This document shows positions 737 through 11,508 of a stretch of 11,508 nt of DNA, one piece after another. A program made the position numbers and the translations under genes. The notes under the pieces were generated by a model. The model did no database searches, was not told where the DNA came from, and saw nothing but the letters and a program-made list of their open reading frames with translations. The stretch lies in the UHGV virus genome UHGV-0111509; one strand, written 5' to 3'. The DNA is from a virus. How positions within the stretch are numbered: position 1 is the first letter of the stretch; each line of letters begins with the position of its first letter.

Positions 737-1006
737 TTACCTTAGACGCCAGGGGCCTCTATCTTCAATCTGTTCGACTAACCCCTCCTCTTCTAGTTCA
801 CGCAATAGTGCAACAACCCAATATTGTTGGTTCGAACTTGTTGCTTTCCGTTTTTCTCCCCAATCGAGGCCGCTTAGACGAAATACCTCAGCTTGCTTAA
901 CGCCGTTGCCGTTTTTTTGGGCATCTGGGTGAGTTTTAAGTACGGATAAAGCCAATTCTTTGGCTCTGTTGCGCAATTCCGCTCCCTGATGCTGAAACTT
1001 ATTCAT
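737..1006 (-). CDS. Hypothetical small protein (89 aa) encoded just downstream of int on the same strand; possible winged-helix-like DNA-binding protein
   Basis: ATG at 1006-1004 preceded by GGAG at 8-nt spacing (complement of 1015-1018). It lies 58 bp downstream of the int stop, so is likely co-transcribed. The C-terminal segment (QQYWVVALLRELEEEGLVEQIEDRGPWRLR) resembles a winged-helix recognition helix plus wing, but I do not recognise the family. Confidence 0.55.
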   Translation of the reverse strand: MNKFQHQGAELRNRAKELALSVLKTHPDAQKNGNGVKQAEVFRLSGLDWGEKRKATSSNQQYWVVALLRELEEEGLVEQIEDRGPWRLR

Positions 1007-1064: not shown

Positions 1065-2096
1065 TCAAAAAATTGCTATTGATGTTGGTAGTGTTGCCAG
1101 CGGATTAAACCGTAATGCAGTTTCCAGGTGATCCGGTGCCAGATGTGCGTAACGCATAGTCATTTTTATATCGTGATGCCCGAGAATTTTTTGTAAGGCC
1201 AGGATATTTCCACCCGACATCATGAAGTGCGCCGCAAACGTATGGCGCAGAACGTGTGTCAGTTGACCGCGAGGGAGCACGATAGACGTTTTTTCCATCA
1301 CGGATAAAAATTGAAAATAGCAGTCTGTAAAGAAATTGAACCCATCAAGCGCCATGATCTCTTCGTAAAGCTCTTTACTGATAGGGATGCTTCTGTTTTT
1401 CTTCCCCTTCGTTCTTACAAAGGTAATTCGGTATTTGGTCACCTGTGAGCGGGTAAGATTTACGGCTTCACGCCAACGTGCGCCTGTGCTTAAGCATATC
1501 TTAACTACCAGTGCCAGAATTGGGTCCTGACGTTTGCAATCAGCCAGCAATTCAACAATCTGCTCATGGGTAAGCCATGCCATCTCTTTTTCTGCGATGG
1601 TGAATTTTCGCATGTTCTCCAGTGGGTTCGGATACGACCATTCGCCCAGGCGGGATAGTTCGCTAAAAACACTACTTAGATAGCTTTGCTCCAGGTTAAT
1701 GGTGACCGGGCTTGCTCCTTTCTTCCATTTCTCGCTGAAGTAGATCTCACCTGTCAGGCGTTTATCTCGATAGTGGGCAAACATTTTAGAGGTTAGATCA
1801 GTTGCAAGGGGATTGCCCAGAGCGTCAACCATCAGCAGCAATTTGTCATAGACATGCTGCCCAGCAGTCAGTGATTTACCATGTAGTTTGAACCATAGCT
1901 CAACCACGTCTTTCAGTGTTCGACGATCCACTGATTCACCTAGCCAGGGCTTTGCTTCGGTTTCTTCCATCGTGTGACGCTCAAAAGCCAGTGCTTCACC
2001 TTTGGTGGCGAATTGTTTACGCACACGACGTCCACTACGTCCGGCGGGGTAACATTCGCAAAGCCATTTTCCTGTGGTGAGTTTTCGTACTGCCAT
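1065..2096 (-). CDS. int: Site-specific tyrosine recombinase, P2/186-family phage integrase
   Basis: The translation from the ATG at 2096-2094 begins MAVRKLTTGKW, which matches how P2-family integrases start (P2 Int begins MAIKKL...). Box I TGARWREA is present, as are the HxxR pair and catalytic Tyr in HVLRHTFAAHFMMSGGNILALQKILGHHDIKMTMRYAHL. GGAGGG RBS 8 nt upstream. The 26-codon N-terminal extension in the ORF track (to 2174) is rejected. Confidence 0.9.
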   Translation of the reverse strand: MAVRKLTTGKWLCECYPAGRSGRRVRKQFATKGEALAFERHTMEETEAKPWLGESVDRRTLKDVVELWFKLHGKSLTAGQHVYDKLLLMVDALGNPLATDLTSKMFAHYRDKRLTGEIYFSEKWKKGASPVTINLEQSYLSSVFSELSRLGEWSYPNPLENMRKFTIAEKEMAWLTHEQIVELLADCKRQDPILALVVKICLSTGARWREAVNLTRSQVTKYRITFVRTKGKKNRSIPISKELYEEIMALDGFNFFTDCYFQFLSVMEKTSIVLPRGQLTHVLRHTFAAHFMMSGGNILALQKILGHHDIKMTMRYAHLAPDHLETALRFNPLATLPTSIAIF

Positions 2097-2097
2097 A

Positions 2098-2126
2098 AAA
2101 AATGCCCTCCAGTGGAGAGCATTTTT
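2098..2126 (-). promoter_or_regulatory. Hairpin (about 13-bp stem, one mismatch) immediately 5' of the int start codon whose 3' arm contains the int RBS; possible terminator/attenuator separating the upstream operon from int
   Basis: AAAAATGCCCTCC-agt-GGAGAGCATTTTT read directly at 2098-2126, with A/T runs on both sides. A candidate int promoter (-35 TTGACA at complement of 2144-2149, -10 TAAAAA at complement of 2122-2127, 16-nt spacer) overlaps it. Confidence 0.3.
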
Positions 2127-2186
2127 ACTGTATATATAACCAGTGTCAATGTATATTAATTGAGATTCATACATTGAGGTTAATTT

Positions 2187-2792
2187 TTATCTTTCTACTT
2201 CCCAGCGTAGAGATTGCATTAACATAGCATAAATATTGAACAGGAAAGTTTTTAAAGTTAATACAAGGAATACTGCACTGCTTCCTACGAGTATATATAG
2301 AATTTGAACTCCAACAACTTTTGTGCAATGAGAAAACATTAAGGCTCTGAGTAATTTTGTAGCCAATCCATTTTCTTGCCCGAAAAGAAGGATTAAAAGA
2401 TAGATAACAGACCAAAATATGAAATATATAAATACTCTCATAAATACGCCATAAACATATTTTAAGTAACTTATCCCATATAATGGATGCTTATACTCCA
2501 TTAATGAAAGGAAAAGTTCAGGTTTATTTATGGTTGCAAATATTGTGAATCCAGTAATTAAAAAACCTAATGTTGTTGTAGTGAACCCGAATACTAAAGG
2601 TGTCCATTGTCTAATAGATGAAATTAACTCTGGTGATGAAGATAGACAAAAAGCATTAATAGATAACAATATCACTAACAATAATGTGAAATAAAAGTCA
2701 AATGAATTGACTTTTATTTTTTTAGTTAATTTGTAAACATCATACAAAGATCGCTCTTTGGTCAGATCTTCTGGGTTGAATGTATATTTCAT
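2187..2792 (-). CDS. Integral membrane protein, about four predicted transmembrane helices (201 aa); third gene of the repressor-linked operon; candidate RexB-like membrane effector
   Basis: Four long hydrophobic stretches (FYFTLLLVILLSINAFCL; WTPLVFGFTTTTLGFLITGFTIFATI; VYGVFMRVFIYFIFWSVIYLLILLFG; VVGVQILYILVGSSAVFLVLTL). The start ATG (2792-2790) is 1 nt from the TAG stop of the upstream gene (2796-2794). Strongly AT-rich. Confidence 0.75.
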   Translation of the reverse strand: MKYTFNPEDLTKERSLYDVYKLTKKIKVNSFDFYFTLLLVILLSINAFCLSSSPELISSIRQWTPLVFGFTTTTLGFLITGFTIFATINKPELFLSLMEYKHPLYGISYLKYVYGVFMRVFIYFIFWSVIYLLILLFGQENGLATKLLRALMFSHCTKVVGVQILYILVGSSAVFLVLTLKTFLFNIYAMLMQSLRWEVER

Positions 2793-2793
2793 A

Positions 2794-3843
2794 CTATAGC
2801 CACCTAGAAATTATTGATGTTAACTTGGAAAAAATTTTAGCATAATCTTCACGTTCTGGAATAATAATATTTCCTTCATCCTTTAATTCTGTGAATGCAG
2901 AATACGCCTCTTGAGCAGCTCTTTCCAAATCAGAACTAAGTTGTGGCCTTGATGCTTTTAGAGTAAAACTATCATTATTCCCTGATAGCCTTGCTCCGTG
3001 TTCATCTTTACCACTTATAATTACTTTAGAGTTGGCCATTTGGGTTGCACTTGTTGTTTTTTGAATGACGGCCTCAGAATTTAGACCATCTTCATTTTTA
3101 TTTGTGTATACTAATTGAGCTTTACTACTATTAAGTTCTTCTTTTTCTTGTTCAATTTTTCTCCAGAAGCCATCAAGAGATATATTTTCACTATTTGTTG
3201 GCAATAACTCAATTGATAATCTATTCACAACAGAAAAGAGTTCAACAAAATTGCTCAATGATCTTGGGTCTGTTAAGGGGGTAACCCGTAATTTTGGGGC
3301 TCCTAGTTTACGATAAATATCTTTTTTATATAGTCGATCAATGTATGATTTTTTCTTTCTAATTCTTTTATTTTTTTTTACTTCGTAATCCACAAAAGAA
3401 TTATATCGCTTTGCAAGGCAATACTTGCTAGTATTTTCAAATTCTTCTAGGGTAGGGGCTCCAGAAACCTCTTTACAAAGCATTAATCTGTGCTCATTAA
3501 GCATAAGGATAAAAATAGAGCTGGGGTGACTTTCTAGCGTCCTGTGATCTCGAATTAATTGACCATCTTGAAATATTTGATCTCGTTTAAATATGGTCTT
3601 TTTAATAATACGCCCACACAATGCAATTGTTGGAACTATAGGACCAATAAAATCTGAATCTGTAGTATCTAACGTAATTATTTTTGTGTCAGTAAAGAAA
3701 TATTCTGTATCTTTAAATTTTCTAACGTATTTTTGTGCGAAAAATGAAGGAAAAACAATGCAGTCAAAGGCATCTAAGAGAACTTTGTCCTCTCCAAAAT
3801 TTAAGGTATAGTTTGCAAATTCAATAGTTTTCGTAAAGCTCAT
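2794..3843 (-). CDS. Hypothetical cytoplasmic protein (349 aa) with no motif I recognise; middle gene of the repressor-linked operon; candidate sensor/effector partner of the membrane protein
   Basis: Long uninterrupted ORF in an AT-rich region. Its ATG (3843-3841) lies 2 nt after the TAA stop of the repressor gene (3848-3846), indicating translational coupling. It has a lysine-rich basic patch (KKNKRIRKKKSYIDRLYKK). No Walker A or nuclease signature was seen. Confidence 0.7.
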   Translation of the reverse strand: MSFTKTIEFANYTLNFGEDKVLLDAFDCIVFPSFFAQKYVRKFKDTEYFFTDTKIITLDTTDSDFIGPIVPTIALCGRIIKKTIFKRDQIFQDGQLIRDHRTLESHPSSIFILMLNEHRLMLCKEVSGAPTLEEFENTSKYCLAKRYNSFVDYEVKKNKRIRKKKSYIDRLYKKDIYRKLGAPKLRVTPLTDPRSLSNFVELFSVVNRLSIELLPTNSENISLDGFWRKIEQEKEELNSSKAQLVYTNKNEDGLNSEAVIQKTTSATQMANSKVIISGKDEHGARLSGNNDSFTLKASRPQLSSDLERAAQEAYSAFTELKDEGNIIIPEREDYAKIFSKLTSIISRWL

Positions 3844-3845
3844 TG

Positions 3846-4787
3846 TTAAACCCTTTTTCTAATTATTCCTTTAACTTTATTATTAAATTCCAAATCTTCT
3901 TTGTCGCATTCAAAGCTATATTTTGTGTTTTCAACGCGGATGCGATTGTTTGGAAGTTTAAATATATCTCTAAAAGTAAATTCTCCGTTAATAGATACTA
4001 ACCATAGACCATCGCTAAGATACTCCTCTTTGCTAATGATGTATGAATCATTTGCGGAATTAACTATATAGGGATGTTTTAAATTTTGAGGTAAAATTTC
4101 GCTCGAAACGATTAATTCTCTTTGATCAGTAAGTTTGCCGTCACGTAGATCATAGCAGTCTAATGTAAGCAACCCACTTAGCTTTGTTTGATTGGAACGC
4201 CCCTTACCAAAAGATAACCACTCGAGAGACACTCCTGTTTCTAAACAGCATTGGATGATCCAGTCTGCAGGAAAAATGTCTCGCATGTATCGTGTAGCTA
4301 ACGTGCTTTTTGAGATACCAAGGTGATCGGCTAAGGCTTGGCGCGTTTTGTAACCGTAAGCCTCAACAATTCGCTCTATTGCTGCTTTACCCCCTCGAGT
4401 GAAATCCATGTGGTTTTCATTATCGAACTTTATAGTGGGGGTGTGAACTTCATTGCAAAATTCATCTCCAGACTGTTTTTCAGCATGCCATTCTGGCGAA
4501 GGAGATGGCATTCCTTCTTCGGCATCTAAACCAAATGCTAGCCATTCGATTGATGCACCAGTTTCCATTGAACATATAACAACCCAATCAGCAGGGAAGG
4601 TATCGCGTGCATATCTGTTAGCCATTGTACTTTGTGAAATACCAAGGTGGTTACAGAATGCTTGGCGTGATTTGAAACCATAGGCCATGAGTATTCTCTC
4701 AATGACTTTTTGCCCTCCTCGATTCTGCATGACCATGGCTTTCAGATGATCTTCAATATGGCGAAATGTGATTTTATTAGTTGACAT
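3846..4787 (-). CDS. CI-type phage immunity repressor candidate with a tandemly duplicated 186-CI-like HTH domain plus a C-terminal domain (313 aa)
   Basis: Two about 64-aa segments (residues about 23-86 and 130-193) are roughly 60% identical to each other: RGGQKVIERILMAYGFKSRQAFCNHLGISQSTMANRYARDTFPADWVVICSMETGASIEWLAFG versus RGGKAAIERIVEAYGYKTRQALADHLGISKSTLATRYMRDIFPADWIIQCCLETGVSLEWLSFG. Both resemble the phage-186-type CI repressor HTH domain (from memory). The gene is divergent from the apl/cox-like gene, which is the canonical repressor position. Confidence 0.8.
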   Translation of the reverse strand: MSTNKITFRHIEDHLKAMVMQNRGGQKVIERILMAYGFKSRQAFCNHLGISQSTMANRYARDTFPADWVVICSMETGASIEWLAFGLDAEEGMPSPSPEWHAEKQSGDEFCNEVHTPTIKFDNENHMDFTRGGKAAIERIVEAYGYKTRQALADHLGISKSTLATRYMRDIFPADWIIQCCLETGVSLEWLSFGKGRSNQTKLSGLLTLDCYDLRDGKLTDQRELIVSSEILPQNLKHPYIVNSANDSYIISKEEYLSDGLWLVSINGEFTFRDIFKLPNNRIRVENTKYSFECDKEDLEFNNKVKGIIRKRV

Positions 4788-4875
4788 ATTCTTTATGCGA
4801 ACCTATTCTCCGTTTTGTGAAGTTTTCGTCACGATTAATACCGGCTCACCACAAGCCAATAGGAGATGTTGCATC
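4788..4875. promoter_or_regulatory. Divergent switch region between the repressor operon and the apl/cox-cII operon; expected to hold face-to-face lysogenic and lytic promoters and operators
   Basis: An 88-bp intergenic spacer between divergent starts 4787 (-) and 4876 (+). Contains a TTGTGA -35-like hexamer (4815-4820) and a GTTTTG/GTTTTC direct repeat. Exact promoter hexamers could not be assigned confidently. Confidence 0.4.
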
Positions 4876-6680: not shown

Positions 6681-7534
6681 GCACCATCCTGAAATGGGCG
6701 GGAAATAAAACCGCCATTATGCCAGAACTGAAAAAACACCTTCCTGCTGGCCCGCGACTGGTTGAACCTTTCGCGGGTTCCTGTGCAGTGATGATGGAGA
6801 CGGATTACCCCAGCTATCTGGTTGCGGATATTAATCCTGATTTAATCAACCTCTATAAAAAGGTTGCCGCTGATTGTGAATTGTTTATATCTCGCGCCAG
6901 GGTTTTATTTGAGGAAGCAAACAGGGATGTGGCTTATTACAACATAAGGCAGGAGTTTAACTACTCAACTGAAATTACTGATTTCATGAAAGCGGTATAT
7001 TTCCTGTATCTCAATCGTCATGGTTACCGTGGGTTATGTCGCTATAACAAGAGCGGGCATTTCAACATTCCCTACGGTAATTATAAAAATCCGTATTTCC
7101 CTGAAAAAGAAATTCGTGCATTTGCAGTAAAAGCCCTGCGGGCAACGTTTATCTGCGCCAGCTTTGATGAAACGCTGGCGATGTTGAAGGCGGGGGATGT
7201 GGTGTATTGCGATCCGCCGTATGACGGCACGTTTTCCGGTTATCACACTGACGGCTTCACTGAAGATGACCAGTATCACCTGGCATCCGTTCTTGAACAT
7301 CGATCATCTGAAGGTCATCCGGTCATTGTTTCTAACAGTGACACATCCCTGATTCGTTCGCTGTATCGCAATTTCACTCACCACTACATCAAGGCAAAAC
7401 GCAGCATCGGTGTGTCGGCTGGCGAGAGTAAATCTGCAACAGAAATCATTGCTGTTTCCGGGGCGCGCTGCTGGGTGGGATTTGATCCTTCGCGTGGCGT
7501 GGATAGTTCTGCTGTGTACGAGGTGCGTGTATGA
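6677..7534 (+). CDS. dam: Dam-family (D12 class) N6-adenine DNA methyltransferase, orphan phage methyltransferase (285 aa)
   Basis: N-terminal LKWAGNK and [11 protein letters not shown] (AdoMet-binding motif I), catalytic DPPY (VYCDPPYDG), and the conserved [16 protein letters not shown] block closely parallel E. coli Dam. The start overlaps the TraR-like stop (ATGA), and its stop overlaps the A start. Confidence 0.9.
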
Positions 7535-9945: not shown

Positions 9946-10037
9946 TCACGCGGGTTAACAATTCGTGCTCTTAATAATACCAGGCATATCAGGCTGATGA
10001 ACGTAAAAAAACGTTTTACATCAGTACGATTATTATA

Positions 10038-10057
10038 TACTGTAAATATAAACAGTG
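10038..10057. promoter_or_regulatory. LexA operator (SOS box) taCTGTaaatataaACAGtg in a promoter-like AT-rich region upstream of the 62-aa ORF
   Basis: Read directly: CTGT (10040-10043), 8 A/T-only nucleotides, ACAG (10052-10055). This matches the LexA consensus CTGT-N8-ACAG with an AT-rich spacer. Possible -35 TTTACA (10015-10020) and -10 TATACT (10036-10041) overlap it. Confidence 0.7.
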
Positions 10058-10098
10058 GTTATATGTACAGTATTGCGTATGGTGTTATAGGAGGAAAG

Positions 10099-10287
10099 AT
10101 GCAGGACTATTTTTTGGAGTCTTTGAAGCTCCAGCGCATTGATTTTTTTCTTAAGCTTGTAGCGGCTAGTGAGTGTAGTGATGAAGAGAAGGGGCTAGCT
10201 CTGCAGTGGGTTTCTGAATTGACTGATGAGTTGATGGCGAAAATTCGAAGCCATGAATACAGTAGGTCGATGGATGTAATCAGTTGA
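10099..10287 (+). CDS. Hypothetical 62-aa protein under putative LexA control; candidate Tum-like SOS-inducible antirepressor
   Basis: ATG at 10099 with TAGGAGGA RBS at 10088-10095. The LexA box is about 45 bp upstream and a terminator follows. The longer ORF-track start (9997) would run through the promoter and LexA box and is rejected. The functional call is by analogy to 186 tum. Confidence 0.5.
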   Translation: MQDYFLESLKLQRIDFFLKLVAASECSDEEKGLALQWVSELTDELMAKIRSHEYSRSMDVIS

Positions 10288-10320
10288 GCTTGTTTCGTTA
10301 GGACTTGATAAGGGAACCGA

Positions 10321-10341
10321 AAAGGGGCATTAAGCCCCTTT
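10321..10341. terminator. Bidirectional intrinsic terminator between convergent genes (stem AAAGGGGC / GCCCCTTT, loop ATTAA)
   Basis: GC-rich 8-bp stem read directly. Followed by TTTCTC on the plus strand and by TTTTCGG on the minus strand. It lies between the plus-strand gene ending at 10287 and the minus-strand gene ending at 10355. Confidence 0.55.
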
Positions 10342-10354
10342 CTCATAAGTTGAT

Positions 10355-10654
10355 TTAGTTGTTACCCAAAGAGCCGGCCATGGCTGCATATTTAATTTCT
10401 TCGCTGGGTATTTCAGGATGTAGTTGAATTTGCCTGATGATATAGCCAGGAACTTCTTCACTCCACAGTTTCGCCGCGTCCTTACAGACCTTATACGCGA
10501 AGTCTCTATTCTCAAAGGCATAGGATTTTCCGTATGCATATTGCTGACAGGCATGAACATAAGCTCCGAAGTCGCCGTCTTTATCTGGCAAAGCACATCC
10601 AGCTAAGGCTATGATGATTGCTACTAACGTAAAGGAGAAAGTTATACGTTTCAT
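10355..10654 (-). CDS. Small lipoprotein (99 aa): signal peptide with lipobox LAGC
   Basis: N-terminus MKRITFSFTLVAIIIALAGCALP has a basic n-region, a hydrophobic core and a L-A-G-C lipobox. The mature part is rich in Tyr and Cys. Located in the AT-rich cargo region downstream of gene A. Confidence 0.75.
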   Translation of the reverse strand: MKRITFSFTLVAIIIALAGCALPDKDGDFGAYVHACQQYAYGKSYAFENRDFAYKVCKDAAKLWSEEVPGYIIRQIQLHPEIPSEEIKYAAMAGSLGNN

Positions 10655-10709
10655 GGTCTCTTTCTAAGCGTTTAGCATTATTTAACTAAGGGGTATCTGC
10701 CGTGATTTG

Positions 10710-10738
10710 GTAGTCCCTGATATATATTCTCAGGGACT
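10710..10738. promoter_or_regulatory. Perfect 10-bp inverted repeat TAGTCCCTGA-(9 nt AT-rich)-TCAGGGACTA between two same-strand cargo genes; candidate operator or RNA hairpin
   Basis: Read directly: 10710-10719 and 10729-10738 are exact reverse complements with spacer TATATATTC. No T-run follows on the minus strand, so it is not a classical terminator. Confidence 0.4.
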
Positions 10739-10762
10739 ATGCTGAAGTAGCTTTAATTTTGA

Positions 10763-11508
10763 TTATTTAGAAAGGTACTTATCTCTAAGTTGATTCAGTC
10801 TGTCAGCATCGCGTTCTGAAAACTCGGCGTCACCATAGATCGATTTCCCATCTGCGTCTTCAAGGCCAATGACTGTGACGGTAAATATAGCATCAGCCGG
10901 AACTTTAAGTTTTCCCCAATCAGAGTATCTATTAGGGGCTAATTTCCAGTTGGCTTTCTCACCTGGTTCCAGACCTCCAGAAATTTTATAGTTGAAGACG
11001 TCAGAGAACCAAGGGACGCTTCTTCCTGGGCTGGCAATAACTCCTTTGAAGAATACTCTGGCAACCGCTTTGTCTGTTCCGTTTTCAACGCTAATATCCA
11101 GAATTGGCTGATCATTGCCGTAATCCTCTTTCTGGAAATAAAAACGGGAACGTTCGACCTTGAAGGCTTTCATTTTTTCCGCAGCCTGTGTTGCAGAGGT
11201 TTGTTTGGCTTCCAGTTCTTTTATTTCTTGCAGAGCCTGTTCTTTCTCTCTCTTCTCACGCTCAAGGCGAATAGTTTGTGCGTAATTTATAACCTCATCA
11301 CCAGTTTTACCTTCCAACGCTGACTTAATTTTTGTTTCGTAGACGTCCCCAGAAGACGTTCCAGCCTGCATTAGCTCTCTCATGTTGATTTGGCTAAAGG
11401 CAACGACTTTAACTGCATCATCAAACTGAGCTTTTTTATCTGCAGGTAAGGACTCTCGGTGATGCTGCCAACTTACTGATTTAGTGTATGATGGTGTTTT
11501 TGAGGTGC
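10763..11508 (-). CDS. Hypothetical protein, 5' end outside the window (at least 248 codons); contains a predicted coiled-coil segment
   Basis: The ORF track starts it at the Met at 11383, but the same frame stays open without a stop to the window edge (checked codon by codon, 11384-11506), so the gene probably starts beyond 11508. Charged heptad-like segment EREKREKEQALQEIKELEAKQ. AT-rich. Confidence 0.6.
   Translation of the reverse strand, partial: TSKTPSYTKSVSWQHHRESLPADKKAQFDDAVKVVAFSQINMRELMQAGTSSGDVYETKIKSALEGKTGDEVINYAQTIRLEREKREKEQALQEIKELEAKQTSATQAAEKMKAFKVERSRFYFQKEDYGNDQPILDISVENGTDKAVARVFFKGVIASPGRSVPWFSDVFNYKISGGLEPGEKANWKLAPNRYSDWGKLKVPADAIFTVTVIGLEDADGKSIYGDAEFSERDADRLNQLRDKYLSK

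Follow-up and report, generated by a model that had tools for sequence, protein, structure and literature searches.

A putative RexAB-type exclusion module flanked by the immunity repressor and integrase genes of a P2/186-like Escherichia coli prophage

What is the role of a 349-amino-acid (aa) protein whose gene is wedged between the immunity repressor and a small membrane protein of a temperate phage? The question is raised by the virus genome UHGV-0111509, all 11,508 nucleotides (nt) of which were analysed here (hereafter, the window). The window corresponds to the left arm of a prophage of 186/P2-like type (Peduoviridae) adjoining rcdA in E. coli; its queried segment (2100-4800) was 100% identical to E. 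coli strain EC20-72C-1 and ~98% identical to ten further complete genomes. We name the 349-aa product A and the membrane protein encoded after it B; the two genes are cargo, lodged in the cI-int slot of this prophage next to rcdA. With a probability of about 70%, we consider that they constitute a RexAB-type two-component phage-exclusion (abortive-infection) module, in which A would be the cytoplasmic sensor and B the membrane effector.

The gene for A exists as the first-pass annotation had claimed, as an open reading frame (ORF) on the minus strand that runs from ATG to TAG (2794-3843), and its conservation across a large family indicates that it is real. It is tightly placed between repressor and membrane protein, starting 2 nt after the TAA of cI (3846-3848) and ending 1 nt before the ATG of B, with candidate Shine-Dalgarno motifs (AAGGG, AGGTGG) ahead of both the A and the B starts. 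It is also, as had been noted, the largest ORF wholly within an AT-rich stretch (~2250 to 4250; GC content 0.28-0.34, vs 0.43-0.55 in the flanks) that reaches into the 3' third of cI. The designation 'orphan' was mistaken: a word-indexed search recovered 25 homologues (down to 39% identity), and an exhaustive profile search recovered 703 representative clusters (50% identity) at E<=1e-3 and 351 at E<=1e-30, nearly all of them 320-350 aa long and matched end to end. Contigs carrying the exact protein numbered 43, those with a near-identical Klebsiella/Enterobacteriaceae variant 555, and the counterpart in Klebsiella phage 4LV2017 and the related Kp48xx phages is 97.7% identical. A second variant of the module (A of 342 aa, B of 226 aa, ~42% identity) was observed in the same cI-int slot (locus L032 5001-6706, IMG/VR; locus numbers are ours); in a wider collection, E. 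coli, Klebsiella aerogenes, Cronobacter and Salmonella together contribute at least 1,000 contigs with this variant. Each of the two variants, which are 42% identical, is present in ~0.2% of the complete E. coli genomes (11/5,426 for the window type and 13/5,426 for the second variant).

The structure of A was predicted confidently from a 26-sequence alignment (predicted local distance difference test, pLDDT, 80.7; predicted template modelling score 0.82); an antiparallel sheet domain at the N-terminus is followed by a long helix, by a second domain (alpha/beta) and by C-terminal helices, a predicted arrangement that corresponds to the two-domain (RdgC/IML3/CHL4-type) fold of RexA. The lysine-rich patch singled out earlier (KKNKRIRKKKSYIDRLYKK, residues 156-174) is genuine and sits at the end of the long predicted helix (132-164, pLDDT >90), but it is not a family-wide feature: residues 150-180 carry a net charge of +9, vs a family median of +2 (range -4 to +10), and the patch is peculiar to the enterobacterial clade. 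Searched against BFVD with Foldseek, the model recovered four uncharacterised phage proteins (E~1e-9), followed by a phage RdgC. An RdgC-like role for A in modulating recombination or DNA metabolism, with B as a membrane anchor and no part in defence, is in our view very improbable, since A did not match Pfam RdgC (PF04381), RexA outscores RdgC, and RdgC is a stand-alone chromosomal gene with neither a dedicated membrane partner nor a prophage cargo context, unlike A and B, which are encountered in prophage cargo slots and restriction-modification (R-M) neighbourhoods.

Sequence searches were less telling. In agreement with the earlier remark that A bears no recognisable catalytic motif, no enzymatic domain, and indeed no curated domain or significant match of any kind, was obtained from Pfam, PADLOC v2 and NCBIfam. 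PHROGs returned a single weak match (to a family of unknown function), and two sequence profiles of the A family (A1, A3) gave nothing significant against all chains of the PDB. Close homologues of A are called 'DUF4747 family protein' by the Prokaryotic Genome Annotation Pipeline (PGAP) and by UniRef, and the precomputed PF15931.11 marks P0001 (99% identical to A) and four other close homologues.

Several observations weigh against a RexAB-type identity. Neither A nor the 26+75 family members examined with it matched Pfam RexA (PF15969), a model against which lambda RexA itself scores 1e-97; the alignment of the A family with the RexA family (hhalign) reached only P=0.018 (probability 2.5%, 75 columns), its faint signal being collinear (A residues 243-321 with RexA 188-263). 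The local DUF4747 model (PF15931.10) did not match the query, and among the family members it matched 1/26 (E 0.015) and 1/75 (E 2.6e-4). PADLOC v2 is likewise silent on A. Foldseek found no match for the A model in the PDB. Additionally, A exceeds RexA by 70 residues in length, and the superposition covers only 163 residues. On the side of B, no match was found in Pfam (RexB, PF15968, included), the B family has no detectable similarity to RexB by hhalign (P=0.16), and similarity to gp43 of phage CarolAnn was undetectable. Finally, the expression, phenotype, dimerisation and DNA binding of the pair are predictions by analogy, and for lambda Rex itself both the trigger and what DNA binding contributes are unsettled (PMC11077077). 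As for the sequence comparisons, single-sequence alignments of A (by hhalign) with lambda RexA and of A with CarolAnn gp44 gave nothing significant, nor did A vs the gp44 family (P=0.28); a control in which lambda RexA was compared with CarolAnn gp44, both from accepted Rex-like families, was equally undetectable (P=0.29), and therefore the missing sequence similarity is not evidence against a Rex relationship.

The hydropathy of B, for the query as well as averaged over its family, places hydrophobic helices at ~31-52, 66-88, 114-136 and 160-190, behind a basic N-terminus. A single-sequence model of low confidence (pLDDT 62.6), used for helix positions only, has helices at 30-51, 64-89, 109-137 and 144-200. 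We collected 29 related loci from species-representative genomes (Silvania, Photobacterium, Vibrio, Pseudidiomarina, Colwelliaceae, Denitromonas, Rhodocyclales, Halioglobus, Marinomonas, Alcanivorax and Enterobacter), viral contigs and metagenomes, and in every one (29/29) a B homologue (37-99% identity) directly follows A, at a gap of -14 to +6 nt; A-B is therefore an obligate two-gene module. The earlier suggestion that position and coupling make A the sensor or trigger partner of the membrane protein is supported. A small, four-helix membrane protein might also belong to a membrane-level superinfection exclusion (Sie) or holin-like device, in which B would block DNA entry or lyse cells and A would act only as a chaperone or regulator, and weak holin-like HHpred matches were reported for gp31 of phage Butters (PMC7542560). 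We find this hardly credible, considering that B matched no holin or Sie family in Pfam or PHROGs, and that A has a specific, RexA-type predicted fold and is strictly co-inherited with B.

Among the 25 loci whose neighbours were examined, 10 have a cI homologue immediately upstream (at A identities of 39% to 99%), and 9 of these 10 also have an integrase immediately downstream, reproducing the order cI, A, B, int of the window (for the tenth, L030, the end of the contig comes right behind B). The order cI-A-B is the same as in lambda cI-rexA-rexB and CarolAnn 45-44-43. In phage 186, the lysogenic promoter pL drives leftward transcription of cI and int, therefore A and B are expected to be expressed in the lysogen together with cI and int from a lysogenic promoter, a situation that would parallel the PRM-cI-rexA-rexB transcript of lambda. 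No terminator-like sites were detected on the minus strand between 1000 and 5200, and the promoter-like sites within the cassette (15, vs 12.8 expected by chance) are uninformative.

The slot holds alternative cargo. A sibling prophage, also at this rcdA site in E. coli (L045 2300-4069), encodes, instead of A-B, a 589-aa homologue of P2 Old (PADLOC Old, 5.6e-234), and has the 5' part of cI in common with the window prophage; this replacement identifies the cI-int slot as an exchangeable site for defence cargo. In P2-related Vibrio phages, the interval from cI to int had already been recognised as a hotspot for defence genes (PMC9122126), and the integrase-primase region accounts for ~8% of P2-borne systems (PMC13586616). 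The predicted fold of A, its pairing with B, the position after cI and the exchangeability of the slot are established by the present analysis. Other E. coli prophages were seen to match the 5' part of cI only (window 4237-4800, ~81% identity). From the sequence, a recombination joint seems to lie inside the cI gene, and an exchange of cargo would therefore also swap the C-terminal domain of the repressor.

Outside prophages, the A-B pair adjoins type I R-M genes in three loci (L007, L009, L012), and the neighbours of the non-prophage loci include PrrC and matches to PADLOC candidate (PDC) models, the other neighbourhoods being unremarkable. In Vibrio sp. Of7-15 (L011 3044-4414, 4986-6643), a 456-aa ORF was observed two genes upstream of A-B; it may be the Zot-domain neighbour that emerged from a pooled Pfam scan (in which the member was not named), and if so, A-B may be carried by or beside a filamentous prophage.

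These contexts also bear on the notion that the pair primarily controls the lysis-lysogeny decision of its own prophage, with A binding DNA, cI or Apl/Cro-like proteins, B antagonising A, and exclusion arising as a by-product. Such a role would suit a gene that directly follows cI in an AT-rich cassette whose boundary falls inside cI, and it has a precedent, as lambda RexA biases the CI-Cro switch to the lytic state without the need of RexB (PMC11077077, whose authors suggest the same possibility for RexA homologues beside repressors). We nevertheless judge it improbable as the main function: the pair also occurs away from any repressor (beside the type I R-M genes and in other non-prophage contexts) and its slot is interchangeable with Old. 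The two roles are compatible, so that control of the switch would not preclude defence.

Compared with known systems, lambda RexA/RexB (Pfam PF15969/PF15968; RexA PDB 8TWQ) resembles A-B in that the gene immediately downstream specifies a small four-helix membrane protein, that both genes lie in the same orientation downstream of an immunity repressor, and that the pair is prophage cargo with an abortive-infection logic, which by analogy we would expect of A-B. The two differ in protein size (RexA 279 aa vs A 349 aa, the latter with its long basic helix 132-164; RexB 144 aa vs B 201 aa), in spacing (gaps of 15 nt from rexA to rexB and of 112 nt from cI to rexA, vs spacers of 1-2 nt) and in the phage backbone, which is P2/186-like and not lambdoid. 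Judged by sequence, A-B is not a member of the lambda RexA or RexB families.

Like A-B, CarolAnn gp44/gp43, Sbash gp30/gp31, Butters gp30/gp31 and Pseudomonas putida RexABpp combine a cytoplasmic protein of 300-370 aa with a four-helix membrane protein. The papers on Sbash, CarolAnn and Butters (the last PMC7542560) tie the DUF4747 domain to RexA, Sbash gp30 and CarolAnn gp44; in such systems the likeness to RexA is visible by structure or HHpred only, and the DUF4747 label is one that they have in common with close homologues of A. The actinobacteriophage systems and RexABpp are expressed in lysogens, as would be expected for A-B, and the CarolAnn pair is co-transcribed with its repressor, A-B likewise lying directly after cI. 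The hosts differ (Proteobacteria for A-B, whose phage backbone is P2-like, whereas CarolAnn, Sbash and Butters are actinobacteriophages), and the triggers of the Rex-like systems (Kita gp53, Crossroads gp132/gp141) lack an obvious coliphage counterpart. The looser 'DUF4747/CarolAnn' class, listed in a 2026 survey among known or predicted bacterial immune operons (PMC13373217), would accommodate A-B. Two other kinds of system were rejected: Kiwa (KwaA/KwaB, DUF4868), as there was no model match and its gene order is reversed (membrane gene first), and a toxin-antitoxin pair or nuclease effector, as no catalytic domain is present.

Only five Rex-like systems have been described according to a 2026 paper (PMC12894663), and Sucellos (SclA/SclB) would make a sixth. 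This Vibrio cholerae superintegron cassette is RexAB-like by structure, unmatched by the Rex Pfam models and now included in DefenseFinder; its defence needs both genes, SclB is a predicted pore, and it is found mostly in prophages, 'often in Salmonella'. A-B is likened to it by description only (two genes, a RexAB-like structure, no Rex Pfam match), and the hosts of the A family (Vibrio, Photobacterium, E. coli, Klebsiella, Cronobacter, Salmonella) overlap its range. Unlike the integron-borne Sucellos, the sole Vibrio locus that was checked (L011) has no sign of an integron cassette array, with one 50-nt repeat pair only. By analogy, A-B may well belong to Sucellos.

Lambda Rex, Sbash, CarolAnn, P. 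putida RexABpp and Sucellos are the models from which we infer, by analogy, the sensing, the interaction of A with B, the depolarisation and the phenotype. In the RexAB-type module, A would be a cytoplasmic, probably dimeric and DNA-binding sensor that detects a cue of the infecting phage (a phage protein, or a DNA-protein complex of replication or recombination) and activates B, which would permeabilise or depolarise the inner membrane; ATP would drop, macromolecular synthesis would halt and the infection would be aborted. As in lambda RexA, A may also influence the lysis-lysogeny switch of its own prophage. The roles could be inverted, with A as the antiviral effector and B tethering or silencing it at the membrane until infection releases it: in Butters, some phages are blocked by the RexA-like gp30 on its own, an activity that gp31 dampens (PMC7542560), and the strongly basic helix of A, in a fold of the DNA-binding type, could act directly on phage DNA. 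We think this quite unlikely, because in four of the five Rex-like systems described so far the membrane protein is the effector and neither gene is dispensable (Sucellos, too, requires both), because B is always present and conserved to the same degree as A, and because A lacks a catalytic domain.

In the literature we came across no description of a Rex-like pair for P2/186-like coliphages or for Klebsiella phage 4LV2017, in which neither gene bears a name, and we regard the assignment as a solid re-annotation, for which the function is one we infer by analogy. RexAB is the oldest known abortive-infection system, and its trigger and mechanism are still debated. The A-B family adds at least 700 clusters (50% identity) with the same predicted fold, the same partner and a repressor-adjacent position, and a tractable E. 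coli/Klebsiella P2-like prophage would make a convenient second coliphage model for Rex, through which three questions could be addressed: the cues of Rex-type sensors, the gating of the membrane partner and the tuning of lysogeny. The pair is missed by PADLOC v2, Pfam and NCBIfam and is a 'hypothetical protein' in most PGAP-annotated genomes; therefore it goes uncounted in many defence inventories, among them lists for Klebsiella prophages that matter for phage therapy. A further extension, speculative and in our view doubtful, would make the A-B family a separate, third proteobacterial Rex-like lineage (apart from lambda Rex and Sucellos), whose repeated placement directly after cI in P2/186-like phages, as seen too in lambda and CarolAnn, may reflect a functional link: the RexA-like protein would tune its own repressor switch as well as sense invaders, and 'repressor-rexA-rexB' would be an ancient immunity-region module, convergently retained across unrelated temperate phages.

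Table 1. Features of the putative module and of the genes that bracket it (window coordinates)
Feature	Position	Strand	Basis
cI-type immunity repressor, 313 aa, first in the predicted leftward lysogenic operon	3846..4787	-	Pfam PF07022 3.4e-57 (two stretches), PF16452 1.3e-19
Spacer between cI stop and A start, 2 nt	3844..3845	-	sequence ...GTT TAA CA ATG AGC
Protein A, 349 aa, putative RexA-like cytoplasmic component (labelled DUF4747 in some public records)	2794..3843	-	
Lysine-rich patch of A, residues 156-174, lineage-specific	3322..3378	-	sequence; net charge
Spacer between A stop and B start, 1 nt	2793..2793	-	sequence ...CTA TAG T ATG AAA
Protein B, 201 aa, putative RexB-like membrane component, four hydrophobic helices, basic N-terminus	2187..2792	-	hydropathy
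P2/186-type tyrosine integrase, last gene of the leftward cI-A-B-int unit	1065..2174	-	Pfam Int_N 3.6e-32, Phage_integrase 8.5e-22

The minus strand of the window carries cI, the two cargo genes and the integrase, and the plus strand the backbone genes (CII/CP76, DUF5347, DUF2732, TraR/DksA zinc finger, Dam methylase and gpA). The repressor consists of a tandem duplication of the Phage_CI_repr helix-turn-helix (HTH) domain followed by a CI_C domain, and its homologue is named 'phage repressor protein CI' by PGAP; the same-slot repressors of related prophages measure either ~190-225 aa (single HTH) or ~310 aa (L039, L041). At the prophage end, the integrase and rcdA are separated by an 89-aa ORF (737-1006, minus strand); in an Enterobacter locus (L004), too, int is followed by an ORF of 89 aa. 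The ORF of the window is lacking in a sibling prophage (L001), where int abuts rcdA. The dam and gpA genes overlap directly in the window (7531-7534), which is without the extra PAPS-reductase-domain gene that a closely related prophage (L001 11422-12432, cassette 98% identical) has between them. Directly after gpA (9997-11383), three ORFs of 96 aa (plus strand), 99 aa (minus) and 206 aa (minus) gave no Pfam or PADLOC match. The 99-aa ORF has a lipoprotein-type signal ending in LAGC, and the three, situated inside the published GpA-GpQ defence hotspot of P2-like phages, may represent more uncharacterised cargo.
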